Part shown: positions 8,386 through 13,774 of the stretch, in pieces
How the letters are laid out: every line of letters begins with the position of its first letter
How positions within the stretch are numbered: position 1 is the stretch's first letter
Virus record (IMG/VR): IMGVR_UViG_3300021226_000189
DNA length: 64,000 nucleotides
Source of the DNA: a virus
Strand: one strand, 5' to 3'
Position numbers and translations under genes: made by a program
The notes under the pieces: generated by a model
Told to the model about the DNA's origin: nothing
What the model saw: only the letters and a program-made list of their open reading frames with translations
The model's database searches: none

Positions 8386-9079
8386 ATTATTGAAATTGAT
8401 TGGATTCGAAAGAAGAGGTTATGATTCGGACACTTATCATTTTAAATGGGGGGAAATTTCATGGCATCCGAAAAAATGGGAATTATCTTTAAGATATTGT
8501 AATTTTGGGTGTTGTGAATCTCATGATCTTTTAATTATTAAACCTTTGTTTTGCTCTATTTACATTCATCTGTCGGATGAATATGATAGACCTTGGGATG
8601 ACAACGGATTTAGTTATGGATTTTATATTTATGATTGGAACTCTCTGAATTTGGGATGGGGTGAACACTCTAAATCTTGGGATTTCCCATACATAGCGAG
8701 AGAATGGAAAAGAACTGAAATATATGATACTGATGGTGTTCATTGGTTTACTGAAAAAAAAGGTGATAAGTCATGGGATGAAAAATATGAAATCCAAAAT
8801 AATATTAAAAAATCTTATCCTTATAAGTATGTTTTGAAAAACGGTCACATTCAGGAAAGAATAGCCAAAGTTCATGTATCAAACATGGTGTGGTCACGTA
8901 AATGGTTTCCTTTTTTAGAGGTTAATAGGAGATGTATTGATGTTGATTTTTCTGATGAAGTTGGAGAAAGAACTGGTGAATGGAAAGGTGGTTGTATTTC
9001 ATGTGGTTATGAATTGAGAGAAGGGGAAACACCCGAAGAATGTTTGAGAAGAATGGAAAAAGAAAGGAAATTTGAATAA
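8378..9079 (+). CDS. Hypothetical protein
   Basis: 233 aa Trp-rich ORF. Confidence 0.65.
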   Translation: MNKLLKLIGFERRGYDSDTYHFKWGEISWHPKKWELSLRYCNFGCCESHDLLIIKPLFCSIYIHLSDEYDRPWDDNGFSYGFYIYDWNSLNLGWGEHSKSWDFPYIAREWKRTEIYDTDGVHWFTEKKGDKSWDEKYEIQNNIKKSYPYKYVLKNGHIQERIAKVHVSNMVWSRKWFPFLEVNRRCIDVDFSDEVGERTGEWKGGCISCGYELREGETPEECLRRMEKERKFE

Positions 9080-9083
9080 TAAT

Positions 9084-10103
9084 ATGATTAAGAAAACAAA
9101 AGTAGCTATTTTTTCTGACCTACATTTAGGTCTTTATGGAAATTCAACGGAATGGCATGACATCGCTCTTAAATGGGCAGATTGGATCACTGCTGATTTG
9201 AAGAAGAAAAAGATTTTTGATATCTTTTTCCTTGGTGACTTTTTCCACAATCGTTCAGAGATTTCCGTTCAAACAATTCATGTTGCATCTGAATTGATTG
9301 CTAAATTCAAGAATTTTAATATGTTCATGGTTATTGGCAACCATGATGCGTATTACAAGAATCGTGCCGATGTTCATAGCTTGGGTTTCCTTAAAGGTCA
9401 CGATAACATTACAATCATCGACCAGAATTTGGAAGTGGATGCGTTCGGTAAAAAATTACTGTTTGTCCCATGGAATCACGAATTACCAGAAGGTAAATTT
9501 GACCACATTTTTGGACATTTTGAAATCCAAACATTTCAGATGAACAATTACAAGGTTTGTGATCACGGATTCCAAGTAATGGATTTCTTAGCATCCCGAA
9601 CCACTAATGTTTGGTCTGGTCACTTCCATACTAAGAGTATTAAGAAATACAATGAAGGAACGATTCGATACATTGGTAACACCTTCCACCATGACTTCAA
9701 TGATTGTGGGGACGATAAGGGTTATCACATTTTGGATTTGGAAGATGATTCTGTAGAATTTGTGAAAAATACGGTGTCTCCTGAATTCATTAAAATCCCT
9801 CTGACTAAAATAAAAGATTATTCCATGGAGGATGTGGAAGGAAATATCATCAAATTCATAATTGACAAAGACATTGAAGATGATAAGGTAGAGAAGTTCA
9901 AGATTTACTTGTCCAATTTTGCACCTTTCCGTCTAACCACGGAATACAACGTGGCGACCAAGACAATCGGAGATGTTGAACAAGTCGATTCCATTGATAT
10001 CGTGGGAATGTTTGATGAATTTTACGAACAATTGAATCTGGATGAAGAACAACTGAAACGAGTGAAGAAAATAAACGACGAACTTTATGAAAAATGTAAG
10101 TGA
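9084..10103 (+). CDS. gp47: Recombination endonuclease gp47 (Mre11/SbcD)
   Basis: SDLH, GDFFH, GNHD, GHF, SGHFH metallophosphoesterase motifs. Confidence 0.93.
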   Translation: MIKKTKVAIFSDLHLGLYGNSTEWHDIALKWADWITADLKKKKIFDIFFLGDFFHNRSEISVQTIHVASELIAKFKNFNMFMVIGNHDAYYKNRADVHSLGFLKGHDNITIIDQNLEVDAFGKKLLFVPWNHELPEGKFDHIFGHFEIQTFQMNNYKVCDHGFQVMDFLASRTTNVWSGHFHTKSIKKYNEGTIRYIGNTFHHDFNDCGDDKGYHILDLEDDSVEFVKNTVSPEFIKIPLTKIKDYSMEDVEGNIIKFIIDKDIEDDKVEKFKIYLSNFAPFRLTTEYNVATKTIGDVEQVDSIDIVGMFDEFYEQLNLDEEQLKRVKKINDELYEKCK

Positions 10104-10311
10104 TAGAGAAAAATACCATGCACAGCATATTATCGATCATATTTTGTATAATTGTTCGTTGAGTTCGTTGAGTTCTTTGAAAGAACTTGGAATTATACAC
10201 GATCTTGATATTAAGATAATTGACACCGATGATAGTATGATTTGTAATATTTATGTAACACTCAATACCCCCCTTGACAATATTAAAATAAATTTTGAAA
10301 TAAATGCGTAA
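10087..10311 (+). CDS. Hypothetical protein between gp47 and gp46
   Basis: 74 aa overlapping both neighbours; short tandem GTTCGTTGA repeat inside. Confidence 0.4.
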   Translation: MKNVSDREKYHAQHIIDHILYNCSLSSLSSLKELGIIHDLDIKIIDTDDSMICNIYVTLNTPLDNIKINFEINA

Positions 10312-11221
10312 GATTTTATATAAACAACTTAAAGGTCAAAATTTCCTCAGTGTGGGAAATGATCAGATTGTAATTGATTTCCAATCTGGTTTCAATCTGA
10401 TTACTGGTAAGAATATTGATAATCCAGACCGTGTGAACGGTATTGGAAAATCCTGTATCGCTGAATTGTTCTACTATGCTTTGTTTGGTAAAACCATTCG
10501 TGAAATAAAAAAGGAATTCATCATCAACAATGTCACTAAAGGAAAGGGTGCTATCGAGCTTACTTTTGATGTGGAGACTGACAATGATACGCAGACATAC
10601 ACAATCAAGCGACAACTCAAACCAAGCTCTGTGACGCTCCTGCGAGGTGAAGAAGATATCACCAAGGACTCCATCGCAAATACGGACAAATTCATATGTG
10701 ATCTGATCGGTTCCAATCCTGTCATTTGTCGTAGCTGTGATATTCTATCTCTTTCGGATAACATCCCATTCATGGCGAAGAAACCAGAGGAGAAGCGCAA
10801 ATTCATCAATGATATTTTCTCTTTGGAAGTCTTTGGTAAGATGAGCAACGAATTGAAGAATCTGATTCGTGAGAACAAATCTGAAATGAATATCTCTTCT
10901 GCCAAGTTGGAAGAAATCAACAACACTTTGGAAACTCTGAATAAACAACAGGAGGATTATCTGAAGAAAGTTCAAGAACGGGAAGCAATTCTCGAAGAAA
11001 AACGTAAAGAAATTCAGCAGAAAATTGATGAAACGTCTGAAAAGATTGCTAAAATATCCATTACGGATGTTTCAGCAATCCAAACAGAAAAGGACAAATA
11101 CGAAGCTGCTTGGGATAAGTTGGATGGAAAGATTGCAGATGTGAATAGTCAAATCTCTTCCAAAGAAACTTTGAGGAAGTTGAAAGTAAAAGAAATTGAA
11201 CAAATAAATAATGTGATATGA
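10304..11221 (+). CDS. gp46: gp46 (Rad50/SbcC) N-terminal half
   Basis: NFLSVGN, Walker A NGIGKS, then coiled coil; stops just before the Zn hook. Confidence 0.9.
   Translation: MRKILYKQLKGQNFLSVGNDQIVIDFQSGFNLITGKNIDNPDRVNGIGKSCIAELFYYALFGKTIREIKKEFIINNVTKGKGAIELTFDVETDNDTQTYTIKRQLKPSSVTLLRGEEDITKDSIANTDKFICDLIGSNPVICRSCDILSLSDNIPFMAKKPEEKRKFINDIFSLEVFGKMSNELKNLIRENKSEMNISSAKLEEINNTLETLNKQQEDYLKKVQEREAILEEKRKEIQQKIDETSEKIAKISITDVSAIQTEKDKYEAAWDKLDGKIADVNSQISSKETLRKLKVKEIEQINNVI
11205..11210 (+). promoter_or_regulatory. Possible late promoter TAAATA for GNAT, inside gp46-N
   Basis: 7 nt before ATG 11218. Confidence 0.5.
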
Positions 11222-11688
11222 TAATTTTAAATGAAAATGAGATAATGTGGGAATCATACGCTGGTGGAATTGAATATCATATCAATTCTGACGAAGAATC
11301 CGATGAAATTAAAATAGAAGCTTTCTATAGAGGTGATAAGATTGGAGATGCTATTGCAAAAATATTATTCGGAGATTTTTATTATGAGTTTGATGATGTT
11401 ATGAGTGAGGATGACATTTATGAATTATTTCCAGATGATTCTTTAGCGAAAATAGAACATGTTGAGGTTAGTAAGCAATATCGAGGAAGTGGTGTAGCAA
11501 AGGAGATGATGAATCGTTTGTTAAGGGAATTGGAGCGACAAGGGTTTAAACAATTTTATCTTAATGCCTCACCAATGGGGATTGATAAAGGATTTAATAA
11601 ACCAGAATTGGTAAAATTTTATCAAAAATTTGGATTTAATACTTTATTAGACCAAGGAGTAAACACGTTAATGATTAAAAAATTATGA
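11218..11688 (+). CDS. GNAT acetyltransferase inserted in gp46
   Basis: VEVSKQYRGSGVA motif A, KFYQKFGF motif B; leader NEIMWESY. Confidence 0.88.
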   Translation: MIILNENEIMWESYAGGIEYHINSDEESDEIKIEAFYRGDKIGDAIAKILFGDFYYEFDDVMSEDDIYELFPDDSLAKIEHVEVSKQYRGSGVAKEMMNRLLRELERQGFKQFYLNASPMGIDKGFNKPELVKFYQKFGFNTLLDQGVNTLMIKKL

Positions 11689-12557
11689 TTAAATGTGATA
11701 AATGCCTCCAAGAAATACCTCATACCCATGTGGAACATCTGGAGAAGATGAAGGAACAATATCAATCCGAATTGGATGATATTGTTAAAGAAATTGAAGA
11801 TTTGAATCATGGTAAAAGTGATTTGATGGTCAAGAAATCTAAAATTCAAAATAAAATCGGGGAATTTCAAACCCAAATCAATGAAGCCAAAGTCACCAAG
11901 CAGAAATTGGAAGGTTTGGAAAACAGCCTAAAACAATACAAGGAGTCTTTGGACAATTTGAAGTTGGATGAATTACCCAAACCCAATTTTGAGGAGAGTA
12001 TCCGAAACACTTGGGAAAGACAAAATGTGGAAAACGATAATTTCCGAATGCTTAAACAGAAATCAGATGATTATGAAATCTGCAAGTTCGTTCTCGGGGA
12101 AGAAGGTGTCCGTAGCTTTGTGGTGAAGAGACTTCTTTCCATGATGAACGCAAGCATTCAGCAATACATCAACGATCTTGGTATGACAATTCGTTGTAAA
12201 TTTGATGAATACTTCGACGAGCAACTCTCCAATGATAAAGGTAAAGAGATTTCCTACTGGAACTTGAGCGGTGGCGAGCGTAGAACAGTTGATCTCGCGT
12301 GTGCGTGGGCATTCAAGGATTTGAAACGCAAGATTTCGGGAGTGTCGTCTAATGTTGAATGGATTGACGAAGTATTCGATTCGGCTTTTGATGAACGTGG
12401 TTTCGATCTTCTGGTAGAACTGATGAAACAAAGAATTGATAAAAATTCTTTATCTGTCTACGCAATCTCACACAGAAAAGAAATGGAAAAACATGTCACA
12501 GGAGAAATTATCTTCCTTGAGAAAGAAAATGGTGTAACTAGAAGAACGTCTAATTGA
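11685..12557 (+). CDS. gp46: gp46 (Rad50/SbcC) C-terminal half
   Basis: Starts MIKCDKC (CxxC hook); LSGGE signature, WIDEVFDSAFD Walker B/D-loop, ISH. Confidence 0.9.
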   Translation: MIKCDKCLQEIPHTHVEHLEKMKEQYQSELDDIVKEIEDLNHGKSDLMVKKSKIQNKIGEFQTQINEAKVTKQKLEGLENSLKQYKESLDNLKLDELPKPNFEESIRNTWERQNVENDNFRMLKQKSDDYEICKFVLGEEGVRSFVVKRLLSMMNASIQQYINDLGMTIRCKFDEYFDEQLSNDKGKEISYWNLSGGERRTVDLACAWAFKDLKRKISGVSSNVEWIDEVFDSAFDERGFDLLVELMKQRIDKNSLSVYAISHRKEMEKHVTGEIIFLEKENGVTRRTSN

Positions 12558-12581
12558 CAAACAAAAGCGAATGGGTAATTA
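12554..12581 (+). promoter_or_regulatory. Sigma70-type promoter
   Basis: TTGACA-N16-TAATTA, 5 nt before ATG 12587. Confidence 0.45.
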
Positions 12582-12586
12582 TTAAC

Positions 12587-13774
12587 ATGTTTAATAGTCA
12601 ACCATTCGCTTCTCCTTTCCCTACAAATCCATTTCAGGTTTCAAATAAACCAAAAGAAGAACCTAAAAAAGGTAATAATTACTTAAACTTTGTTGCTGAT
12701 CGACAAGGATGTGGACAATGGAGAGTGGGATGGCCTGAGTTGCATATCAATATGAATAATCTTGGGGAGTCAACATCTCTCACGAAGATGATTCTTGATA
12801 AAAATTGGTTTAGAGATGTTAAGACCGTTAAATTACAGAGACAAGCATCTACACCTCAAAAACAATACTTTGAATTTGTTAAAAGTATTCAACAGGAAAT
12901 GGGATTCAAGATCATTTATGAAGTAGATGATGTTGTTTTCCGCGAAGAAATTCCTGATTACAACTCAGGGAAAGAATCGTTTGATAATGATGAAATCCGT
13001 CAAAATTGTGTTGATATGATGCAAATGGCAGATGAAGTTACGGTTACATGTAAATTTATGCGAGATCTGTTTATCGAAAAAACAGGTCAACATAAAATAT
13101 CAGTGGTACCTAATTTTGCACCTGAATGGTGGATCGGGCATTATTATGATGCTTACAAAATCAAGCAAAATTATGATAAGAATCGTAAAAGACCTCGAAT
13201 TTTATATTCTGGTTCAGGTGCACATTTCGATATTAAAAATGGTGGGCAAGACGACTTTTCTCATGTCCTAAAATTCATTATTGATAATAGATATAAATAT
13301 CAATTTATTTTCATTGGTGCTTTTCCTCCTCAATTACACCCATATATTCAAAATAGAGAAATCGAATTCCATCCTTGGCAGACATTAACCAATTATCCAA
13401 AATTTATTTCTGGATTGAATGTCCAACTTACAATTGCCCCACTGATGGATAACAATTTCAACAAATCCAAATCAGATATCAAATACATTGAGGGTGCAAT
13501 TTTAGGTATTCCCTGTATGTGTCAGGATTTGGTGACTTACGAAGATGCTCCCGATTTTTTGAAATTTAAGGATTCAGAAGATTTGGCACTGAAAGTGGAG
13601 CATTTATTGAATTATAAAAATCGCGATAGGTATCATAATCTATCCAAAGAGTTGAGAAAACTTGGGGAAACGAGATTTCTCGAAAGACCAGAAAACATTG
13701 GAGCGTTTCTTGAAGCGATGAACACACCATTTAACGATCCATCTCGTAGATTTATGAAATATTGGAACGATTGA
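12587..13774 (+). CDS. GT-B fold glycosyltransferase (GT4-like)
   Basis: DRQGCG.WR, YEVDD, RILYSGS..H, KSDIKYIEG..GIPC; start moved to ATG after the promoter. Confidence 0.75.
   Translation: MFNSQPFASPFPTNPFQVSNKPKEEPKKGNNYLNFVADRQGCGQWRVGWPELHINMNNLGESTSLTKMILDKNWFRDVKTVKLQRQASTPQKQYFEFVKSIQQEMGFKIIYEVDDVVFREEIPDYNSGKESFDNDEIRQNCVDMMQMADEVTVTCKFMRDLFIEKTGQHKISVVPNFAPEWWIGHYYDAYKIKQNYDKNRKRPRILYSGSGAHFDIKNGGQDDFSHVLKFIIDNRYKYQFIFIGAFPPQLHPYIQNREIEFHPWQTLTNYPKFISGLNVQLTIAPLMDNNFNKSKSDIKYIEGAILGIPCMCQDLVTYEDAPDFLKFKDSEDLALKVEHLLNYKNRDRYHNLSKELRKLGETRFLERPENIGAFLEAMNTPFNDPSRRFMKYWND

Follow-up and report, generated by a model that had tools for sequence, protein, structure and literature searches.

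The gp46 locus and the position of the break

The stretch of DNA that was analyzed (the window, 64 kb) comes from an uncultured, freshwater, T4-like phage in which gp46, a Rad50-type DNA-repair ATPase, is encoded by two separate genes. The preliminary description of this DNA had reported that gp46 is split in two with a GNAT gene between the halves, and this layout was borne out: three open reading frames (ORFs) follow one another, with ATGA overlaps on both sides of the middle one. The locus contains the following features.

9072..10103, + strand: gp47, the Mre11/SbcD-type nuclease partner of gp46 (Pfam Metallophos; phrog_100, SbcD-like, E 5.8e-64)
10087..10311, + strand: 74-aa ORF between gp47 and the gp46 N-half; no Pfam or PHROG match, family unknown
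10304..11221, + strand: gp46 N-half, 305 aa; ABC head N-lobe and ascending coiled coil
11218..11221, + strand: ATGA overlap (4 nt) of the gp46 N-half stop and the GNAT start
11218..11688, + strand: GNAT acetyltransferase, 156 aa, between the gp46 halves; Pfam GNAT families above curated cutoff
11685..11688, + strand: ATGA overlap (4 nt) of the GNAT stop and the gp46 C-half start
11685..12557, + strand: gp46 C-half, 290 aa, beginning MIKCDKC; hook CxxC, descending coil, LSGGE, Walker B, and H-loop
12554..13774, + strand: glycosyltransferase-like gene (phrog_7162), overlapping the gp46 C-half stop; last gene of the conserved run

The first gene of this tightly packed run, gp47, shares 92 to 93% identity with the gp47 of relatives, and the interval between it and the gp46 N-half varies across their loci from 0 to ~1.6 kb. 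The glycosyltransferase-like gene is kept 3' of the C-half in relatives, with inserts between the two in some. No terminator-like site was found on the + strand from gp47 to the end of the C-half. Because no Shine-Dalgarno-like sequence is evident 5' of the C-half start, the mode by which the C-half is initiated (re-initiation or Shine-Dalgarno-independent) can only be assumed.

Both halves were assigned to the gp46 family by profile matches. The N-half matches Pfam AAA_23 (E 1.7e-14) and positions 293 to 605 of the phrog_77 (SbcC-like) profile, the C-half matches positions 629 to 950 of the same profile (E 1.6e-38), and the family profile matches solved Rad50 and SbcC chains. Walker A (NGIGKS) occupies N-half residues 45 to 50 (10436-10453), with G48 and K49 invariant in 24 sequences. 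The LSGGE signature (C-half residues 194 to 198; 12264-12278), Walker B (12357-12371; D228/E229), and the H-loop histidine H263 (codon 12471-12473) lie in invariant columns, as do the two cysteines of the hook CxxC, C4 and C7 of the C-half (codons 11694-11696 and 11703-11705). The Mre11/SbcD-type nuclease gene next to gp46 satisfies a further test of Rad50 membership. The usual Rad50 architecture, with head and coil on a single polypeptide, is not met: the N-half ends in KEIEQINNVI followed by TGA (stop at 11219-11221), and a new start lies at 11685.

In an AlphaFold model of an intact 596-aa relative, two helices (residues 174 to 302 and 319 to 442) flank a loop (residues 303 to 318) that contains C310/C313. 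As modeled, an antiparallel coiled coil with an apical CxxC hook is present, and zinc binding itself is inferred. The N-half of the window ends at the equivalent of residue 305 of the intact relative and the C-half starts at the equivalent of residue 307; the break falls within the apex loop, four residues ahead of the first hook cysteine. Leading up to the hook, split alleles also have EQI..VI where S-S-V-D/E-G is otherwise conserved. Given this loss, hook geometry may differ from that of canonical Rad50.

Intact and split alleles and the contents of the gap

A survey of relatives, which the preliminary description had proposed as a check, retrieved both forms of gp46. Among 50 complete related loci, 37 are intact (one ~596-aa gene) and 13 are split; the nearest intact relative has a 596-aa gene at 91% identity. 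Intact alleles read KEIDKFSSVEDGIQCDKC across the hook, while split alleles read EQI..VI stop / MIKCDKC. Both forms occur side by side in a single population. Split forms were found on ~150 contigs (JGI, ENA, Logan, and NCBI), all with this same junction, and their N-halves of 305 to 310 aa form 40 clusters at 90% identity. IMG/VR holds 16 contigs with the split junction. A nucleotide BLAST search with the locus gave no match to cultured phages, and protein matches from cultured phages are at most 31% identical; thus, cultured phages offer no close comparison. One candidate for an independent split in a distant lineage (P0043, 318 aa) was rejected, as its contig carries a run of N and has ~1x coverage; this split is most likely a scaffold gap.

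Because the window comes from a metagenome-type assembly, we asked whether a chimeric contig could have placed the GNAT gene inside gp46. Against such an artifact, the gene order and the 4-nt overlaps are identical in separate JGI, ENA, and Logan assemblies. Contigs of four studies aligned to this region, and two of the studies supplied contigs that span both junctions (X1 record 2 at 11039-12100; X5 records 9 and 10 at 11106-11304 and 11297-12082); X4 record 4 (11108-11643) bridges the first junction only. Misassembly, which the preliminary description had listed among the outcomes that would refute its reading, is therefore strongly disfavored by the agreement of independent assemblies, and we give an artifact next to no credence. 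An intact gp46 elsewhere, another such outcome, did not materialize: no second gp46 copy occurs in the 64-kb window, and a 100%-complete, terminally repeated split-type genome of 207,489 bp contains a single C-half match and no second gp46.

At least eight gap states share the one split junction in relatives.

Gap states 1 to 4: 42-nt spacer (L006); 102-aa ORF; 108-aa ORF; 69-aa segment fused to the C-half
Gap states 5 to 8: 156/195-aa GNAT; 72-aa ORF; 89-aa ORF; 75-, 180-, and 91-aa ORFs in a row

An ATGA overlap joins the gp46 N-half to seven of the eight gap contents, the eighth (L006) being a bare spacer without an ORF. Gap lengths range from 42 to ~1050 nt, and the contents are mutually unrelated and in different frames. 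Apart from GNAT, no gap content matched a Pfam or PHROG family, and no HNH, GIY-YIG, LAGLIDADG, or Vsr-like domain was detected in the gap ORFs with Pfam and PHROGs, which does not exclude a past endonuclease. This comparison shows that the gap between the gp46 halves has become a slot for different, unrelated small genes.

The gap ORF of the window matches Acetyltransf_10 (36.4 bits versus a cutoff of 23.6), as well as Acetyltransf_7 and Acetyltransf_1 above their curated cutoffs, and carries the acetyl-CoA motif QYRGSGVA (Q/R-x-x-G-x-G/A type). Its GC content is 30.4%, compared with 36.6% and 37.6% for the gp46 halves, and a dN/dS of 0.09 to 0.12 (at dS 0.7 to 1.1) indicates purifying selection. 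Homologues were found at 72 to 98% identity, and all of those with context read (82 to 98%) sit in the gp46 gap; remoter homologues (42 to 46% identity) are located in unrelated phage contexts. The GNAT gene did not make the split, since seven other gap contents, one of them the 42-nt spacer, are found at an identical junction. It is shown by this comparison to be one cargo of a pre-existing slot, carried by the window and its closest relatives, with its substrate unidentified. Translational coupling to both halves, purifying selection, and the gp46-slot position of all close homologues read in context could also be expected of a working subunit or regulator that bridges the open apex or acetylates the complex. 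The distant homologues in other contexts do not fit such a role, however, and a junction found with a bare spacer and seven other contents implies that no particular gap protein is required. We regard a gap product that is more than mere cargo as improbable.

Short repeats occur at both junctions.

11210..11218, + strand: first copy of AATGTGATA, in the last three sense codons of the gp46 N-half
11692..11700, + strand: second copy of AATGTGATA, within the hook K-C-D-K codons, in another frame
11671..11693, + strand: ATGATTAAA twice (copies at 11671 and 11685), its only two copies in the 64-kb window

The preliminary description had presented the 9-mers as flanking the insert. The exact pair is real (AATGTGATA has exactly two copies in the 64-kb window), and the statement that excision between the copies would be out of frame is correct, since they lie 482 nt apart and 482 mod 3 = 2. 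As a conserved signature, the pair did not hold. It is missing from non-GNAT split relatives, and other GNAT-type relatives do not preserve it exactly; one of them (L072) carries AATGTGGTA and AATGTGACA in its place. A role for AATGTGATA as a target-site duplication or as an insertion or excision signal was rejected owing to this lack of conservation. The duplication of ATGATTAAA, also reported previously, was confirmed and recurs in every GNAT-type locus examined (L072, L076, L078, and L082). Through it, the GNAT C-terminus (LMIKKL) echoes the MIK start of the gp46 C-half, and it is probably a recombination scar of cargo insertion.

Selection on the halves and lateral movement of the split

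Comparisons between split alleles (dS ~1) yielded dN/dS values of 0.056 to 0.099 for the N-half and 0.055 to 0.134 for the C-half. The medians were 0.076 and 0.092, respectively, no higher than the values of intact alleles (0.107 and 0.094). At this divergence, neither half carries a frameshift or internal stop in any of six distinct split alleles. We note that alleles recombine freely; thus, part of the low dN/dS could have accrued while the segments resided in intact genes.

These values bear on whether the split gp46 is dead or dying, with host SbcCD/RecBCD substituting for it or its function dispensable in the lineage. A stop codon does break an otherwise single-chain enzyme, and the conserved S-S-V-D-G stretch ahead of the hook is lost. 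Nevertheless, both halves evolve under purifying selection (dN/dS of 0.06 to 0.13) without frameshift or stop, all catalytic residues are invariant, and the split allele, present on ~150 contigs, has spread into divergent backbones. Decay (dN/dS of ~1), which the preliminary description had accepted as a refutation, is contradicted by these values, and we consider a nonfunctional gene very unlikely. The split allele is shown to be old, selected, and widespread.

The identities of individual segments differ along the gene in two split alleles. The head of L110 is closest to that of intact L062 (76%, compared with 68% to the window clade), whereas its coil is 78% identical to that of split L007 and only 36% identical to that of L062. 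Similarly, the head of L108 is closest to that of L047 (63%), with a coil that shares 60% identity with the split clade and 32% with L047. In control pairs with 62 to 65% head identity, coil identity is 31 to 36%. These comparisons show that, by recombination, the coiled coil and split junction have moved laterally into two divergent gp46 backbones, which is a new result. In a tree built on whole gp46, the split seemed to have arisen three times. Because the best-matching relative shifts along the gene and the junction is common to all split alleles, this reading was rejected as an artifact of mosaic recombination.

The active enzyme could still be one chain if the halves were rejoined by a self-splicing intron, a gene 60-type bypass, or split-intein trans-splicing. 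Introns are documented in T4-type phages, as are split-intein fractured genes and the gene 60 bypass, which spans 50 nt (PMC2988022, PMC2677866), and the spacer in L006 is only 42 nt long. In addition, relatives L106/L107 have part of an intein at another gp46 site, the P-loop. The evidence at the hook site points the other way. No Rfam intron match was found in 10000-13000 at E values up to 1, and a coding gene under selection takes up the whole gap. Gaps in relatives are unrelated, from 42 to ~1050 nt, and are mostly ORFs in differing frames; the 9-mer repeats that might serve a bypass are out of frame at 482 nt apart and are not conserved. Neither junction has a Hint/intein domain match. 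Alignment to the intact form extends to the last residues of the N-half and begins at residue 2 of the C-half, and the halves sum to 595 residues (305 + 290) versus 596 for the intact gene, which leaves no room for intein halves. Splicing or bypass, also named earlier as a possible refutation, thus finds no support in intron matches, gap contents, or intein space, and rejoining of the halves appears highly improbable.

A probable two-chain Rad50 and its precedents

The reading that we favor, with a probability of about 85%, is a selected, working two-polypeptide gp46 in this phage lineage, in which reassembly of the chains is inferred. The comparison of relatives strongly supports the earlier proposal that Rad50 functions here as two chains with the break at the apex, as opposed to a fresh pseudogene or misassembly; assembly in trans remains an inference, without a complex model or proteomic data. 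The N-chain would contribute Walker A and the ascending helix, and the C-chain would contribute the CxxC hook, the descending helix, the signature, Walker B, and the H-loop. The two chains may rejoin via the antiparallel coiled coil and the two ABC-head lobes, with the hook of the C-chain still pairing two complexes through zinc. We further infer that gp47, the small ORF, the gp46 N-half, the gap gene, and the gp46 C-half are carried on one message with overlapping stop and start codons, an arrangement that would give near-equal amounts of the two chains. The idea in the preliminary description that a new start arose so as to rescue the hook is plausible but untested.

T4 gp46 is a protein of ~560 aa. 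The T4 gp46/gp47 pair, SbcCD, and archaeal and eukaryotic Rad50 have the same N-lobe and C-lobe ABC head motifs as the phage protein described here, the same long antiparallel coil with an apical CxxC, and an adjoining Mre11-type nuclease gene. In contrast to T4 gp46, SbcC, and Rad50, the protein of this phage comes from two genes, with the chain interrupted in the apex loop. To our knowledge, all described members of the Rad50/SbcC/gp46 family are single polypeptides, and full-text literature searches retrieved no report of a split Rad50, SbcC, or gp46. In laboratory two-chain Rad50 heads, N- and C-terminal ABC segments have reportedly been coexpressed for crystallography and are said to fold into a single ATPase head although not covalently joined. 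Those constructs omit most of the coil and the hook, whereas the natural phage pair keeps both and is nicked only in the apex loop.

The closest natural precedents are other genes in pieces of T4-type phages, such as Aeh1 nrdA split by mobE, T4 gene 39/60 split by mobA, and gene 43 of Aeromonas phages 25 and 44RR, in which the gap is an ORF or an untranslated spacer (PMC2988022). The split gp46 likewise concerns an essential replication/recombination enzyme that is contiguous in close relatives and encoded here by two adjacent genes, with products that would have to come together again, and it passes the test for this group in having a contiguous orthologue in close relatives and two pieces under selection. 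As with gene 43, the gap material differs between relatives (ORF versus untranslated spacer). Unlike in these genes, none of the eight gp46 gap states matches a known homing-endonuclease family, the break lies at the coiled-coil apex rather than in the catalytic core, and the gap is a multicargo slot within a split module that has itself moved between divergent backbones.

Another described group comprises fractured genes that contain split inteins and Vsr-like endonucleases, and Lake Gatun freshwater data include an SbcD-like gene split without inteins (Dassa et al. 2009, PMC2677866). Such genes resemble the split gp46 in that a phage gene occupies adjacent ORFs around a free-standing gene; they differ in that the gp46 hook site has neither intein halves nor an endonuclease. 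At a second gp46 site, the P-loop, an arrangement of the fractured type was observed in relatives L106/L107.

Rad50, SbcC, and SMC proteins are thought of as rings or rods whose long coils link the apex to the ATPase head and relay signals between the two. We know of no work on the need for an unbroken chain through the hook other than with engineered mutants. It is conceivable, though we hold it to be rather unlikely, that the open apex is an adaptation and not a tolerated accident, or else that the module spreads selfishly. If the open apex is adaptive, a coil ring that is not covalently closed could gate DNA entry and exit differently or could escape a host factor aimed at the phage enzyme; adaptation would also explain the spread of the coil and split-junction module into divergent gp46 backbones. 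Under selfish spread, the module would have been carried along either by the cargo genes of the slot or by a now-lost endonuclease.

The split gp46 adds a fourth enzyme class to the list of T4-type phage genes in pieces, and it shows that a split site can become a place where accessory genes land, and that a split module can be transferred between phages. For the Rad50 family, the split allele represents a natural, abundant, and selected Rad50 that is nicked near the hook, with intact alleles at 91% identity as matched controls. Such a pair of split and intact alleles is suited to testing what an unbroken chain at the apex contributes.

Gene organization at the gp46 locus

Between 9072 and 13774, the ORFs of the window form a single, densely packed run on the + strand, with no terminator-like site found from gp47 through the end of the gp46 C-half.

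Genes of the run
9072-10103, + strand, gp47, Mre11/SbcD-type nuclease (phrog_100, E 5.8e-64)
10087-10311, + strand, 74-aa ORF
10304-11221, + strand, 305-aa ORF, gp46 N-half (AAA_23; positions 293-605 of an SbcC-like PHROG profile)
11218-11688, + strand, 156-aa ORF, GNAT acetyltransferase (several GNAT families above curated thresholds)
11685-12557, + strand, 290-aa ORF, gp46 C-half (positions 629-950 of the profile matched by the N-half)
12554-13774, + strand, glycosyltransferase-like gene

The Rad50/SbcC-type ATPase gp46 is thus encoded by two genes, both under selection and coupled by overlapping stop and start codons, with the CxxC zinc hook on the C-chain. The split around a GNAT gene, as proposed in the preliminary description, stands on the ORFs, the ATGA overlaps at the N-half/GNAT and GNAT/C-half junctions, the profile matches, and the invariant motifs. 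The N-half ends in ...KEIEQINNVI and the C-half begins MIKCDKC; in alignments with 23 relatives, Walker A, both hook cysteines, LSGGE, Walker B, and the H-loop histidine are invariant.

The intervals flanking gp46 also differ in content among close relatives (L002, L003, L016, L025, and L047), measuring 0 to ~1.6 kb between gp47 and the N-half (window 10087-10311) and 0 to ~0.7 kb between the C-half and the glycosyltransferase gene (window 12554). Gene boundaries throughout the gp47-gp46 neighborhood are therefore prone to insertion.

Intact and split alleles

The window phage is far from cultured phages: its DNA polymerase shares ~31% identity with those of Pelagibacter phage Mosig and cyanophages, and the locus has no nucleotide match to cultured phages. 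Among 69 related loci in IMG/VR, 50 contained complete genes. In 37 of these, gp46 is uninterrupted (~596 aa), the apex reads ...KEIDKFSSVEDGIQCDKC..., and some alleles are 91% identical to the window; in 13/50, gp46 is split. The junction is identical in every split allele, with the N-half ending in ...EQI(E/N)(K/N)(V/A)I, or a variant of one to two residues, and the C-half starting with MIKCDKC. In a large protein collection, N-halves of 305 to 310 aa formed 40 clusters from ~150 contigs and four data sources.

In an AlphaFold model of an intact 596-aa relative (mean pLDDT of 74, with the loop at low confidence, as expected for a zinc-free monomer), the ascending helix extends to residue 302, the loop spans residues 303 to 318 and includes C310 and C313, and the descending helix begins at 319. 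Because the last residue of the window N-half corresponds to residue 305 and the first of the C-half to 307, the break cleanly nicks the apex loop at a point four residues ahead of the first cysteine, at the cost of a single residue. In split alleles, a more helix-like ...EQIEKVI tail takes the place of the usual S-S-V-D/E-G stretch leading up to the hook.

Misassembly, an intact copy elsewhere, or decay of either half had been named as observations that would overturn the split, and none was found. The N-half/GNAT/C-half order recurs in independent JGI, ENA, and Logan assemblies, which excludes misassembly; both junctions are bridged by contigs of two of four separate studies, and the first junction by a third. 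Neither the window nor a 100%-complete, terminally repeated split-type genome (207,489 bp) contains a second gp46 copy. Decay is excluded by dN/dS values far below 1 among six distinct split alleles (0.056 to 0.099 for the N-half and 0.055 to 0.134 for the C-half, at dS ~1), no higher than among intact alleles. We note that alleles recombine, so part of this selection history may date from intact genes.

The interval between the halves

The gap between the halves is a variable cargo slot.

Gap contents in the window and related loci (L numbers)
Window and GNAT-type relatives: GNAT
L006: bare 42-nt spacer
L007 and L016 groups: 102-aa ORF
L019: 108-aa ORF
L021: 69-aa segment fused in frame to the C-half
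L106: 72-aa ORF
L108: 89-aa ORF
L110: three ORFs (75, 180, and 91 aa)

Apart from GNAT, no gap ORF matched Pfam or PHROG, and neither resource revealed any likeness to homing endonucleases. Rejoining of the halves after transcription or translation, by an intron, bypass, or intein, is very unlikely: the region has no Rfam match, a gene itself under purifying selection (GNAT dN/dS of 0.09 to 0.12) occupies the entire gap, and the contents of different gaps are mutually unrelated, with very different lengths and frames. Moreover, the halves sum to 595 residues versus 596 in the intact protein, leaving no room for intein halves.

GNAT homologues were found at 72 to 98% identity, and all those whose context was read (82 to 98%) are flanked by an N-half of 305/306 aa and a C-half of 289/290 aa, each overlapping the GNAT gene by 4 nt; GNATs at 42 to 46% identity occur in unrelated phage contexts. 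One homologue (L082:3001-3588; 195 aa), which occupies this slot and shows identical overlaps, carries a 39-residue N-terminal extension. The GC content of the window gene (11218-11688) is 30.4%, versus 36.6% and 37.6% for the flanking halves, consistent with foreign origin. Because the identical split functions whether the gap is empty or contains unrelated cargo, the GNAT, whose substrate is unknown, is best regarded as accessory cargo and not as a part of the machine.

Two 9-mer pairs had been reported at the junctions; both are present, each occurring only twice in the 64-kb window. The AATGTGATA pair is conserved in no other GNAT-type locus and in no other split type, and we therefore read it as either coincidence or a scar since eroded. 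Through the ATGATTAAA duplication, the end of the GNAT protein (...LMIKKL) repeats MIK, the start of the C-half; all GNAT-type loci examined retain this duplication, which is plausibly a scar of GNAT cargo entering an already split junction.

Other loci record further changes. A ~70-aa gap segment is common to L021:3791-4001 and L106:2186-2404, where the A-run just before the ATG has 8 and 9 A, respectively; this homopolymer difference switches the segment between fusion to the C-half and a separate ORF. A 1,951-nt metagenome contig (X5 record 11; window 11683-11806) carries the first ~115 nt of the C-half twice, 249 nt apart, and joins window 11226 directly to 11685, with other content between. 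It is probably a further slot variant, from a sample also holding the GNAT form. Finally, L021:6289-6399 (G003:C1:120633-120749) is a second copy, 90 to 95% identical, of the last ~39 codons of gp46C, located ~1.4 kb downstream of the real gene end, beyond an insert, and has the appearance of a duplication produced by insertion at the gp46 3' end.

Lateral spread and an inferred two-chain Rad50

Split alleles are scattered in three groups of the whole-gene gp46 tree. Sliding-window identity reveals gp46 to be a mosaic; thus, we rejected this tree as a count of split origins and compared head (ABC ATPase domain) and coiled coil as separate parts of the alignment. The L110 head is closest to intact L062 (76%), while its coil shares 78% identity with split L007 against only 36% with L062. 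Likewise, the L108 head is closest to L047 (63%), but its coil shares 60% identity with the split clade and 32% with L047. Control pairs with 62 to 65% head identity show 31 to 36% coil identity. These mismatches show that the coil, together with the split junction, has been transferred laterally into at least two divergent gp46 backbones. The transfer may have been driven by general recombination combined with selection, by the cargo genes, or by an endonuclease that has since disappeared.

In two loci (L106:1-2189 and L107:3-2182), a second break interrupts gp46 at the P-loop. There, the first ~121 residues of the N-half ORF are an intein C-part (PF14890), whose ...SHN end is followed by SCIAE.... 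Immediately upstream, and sharing an ATGA overlap with the N-half ORF, lies a free-standing ORF of >350 aa whose tail is nuclease-like. Fractured genes with an atypically split intein are arranged in this way, although the N-extein piece is unseen, as both contigs end inside the upstream ORF. With the hook split added, gp46 would be in three pieces.

The split itself is confirmed. Purifying selection on both halves, intact motifs, and widespread split alleles support the functional two-chain Rad50 inferred in the preliminary description, a reading to which we assign a probability of about 0.85. By inference from known Rad50, the chains would pair via ~130 residues of antiparallel coil per side and via the two lobes of the ABC head, bind the Mre11-type partner gp47, and dimerize as complexes through zinc at the C-chain CxxC.

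The nearest parallels come from T4-type phages, whose genes-in-pieces include nrdA/mobE, gene 39/60/mobA, and gene 43 (PMC2988022), and from freshwater data, where a split SbcD-like gene without inteins was noted among fractured genes (PMC2677866). Split gp46 differs from these in the class of enzyme and in being cut at a coiled-coil apex, as well as in lacking a recognizable endonuclease, in its multicargo slot, and in the lateral spread of the split module. Full-text literature searches turned up no description of split Rad50, SbcC, or gp46. As a natural matched pair, the intact and split alleles make it possible to ask what purpose chain continuity serves at the Rad50 hook.
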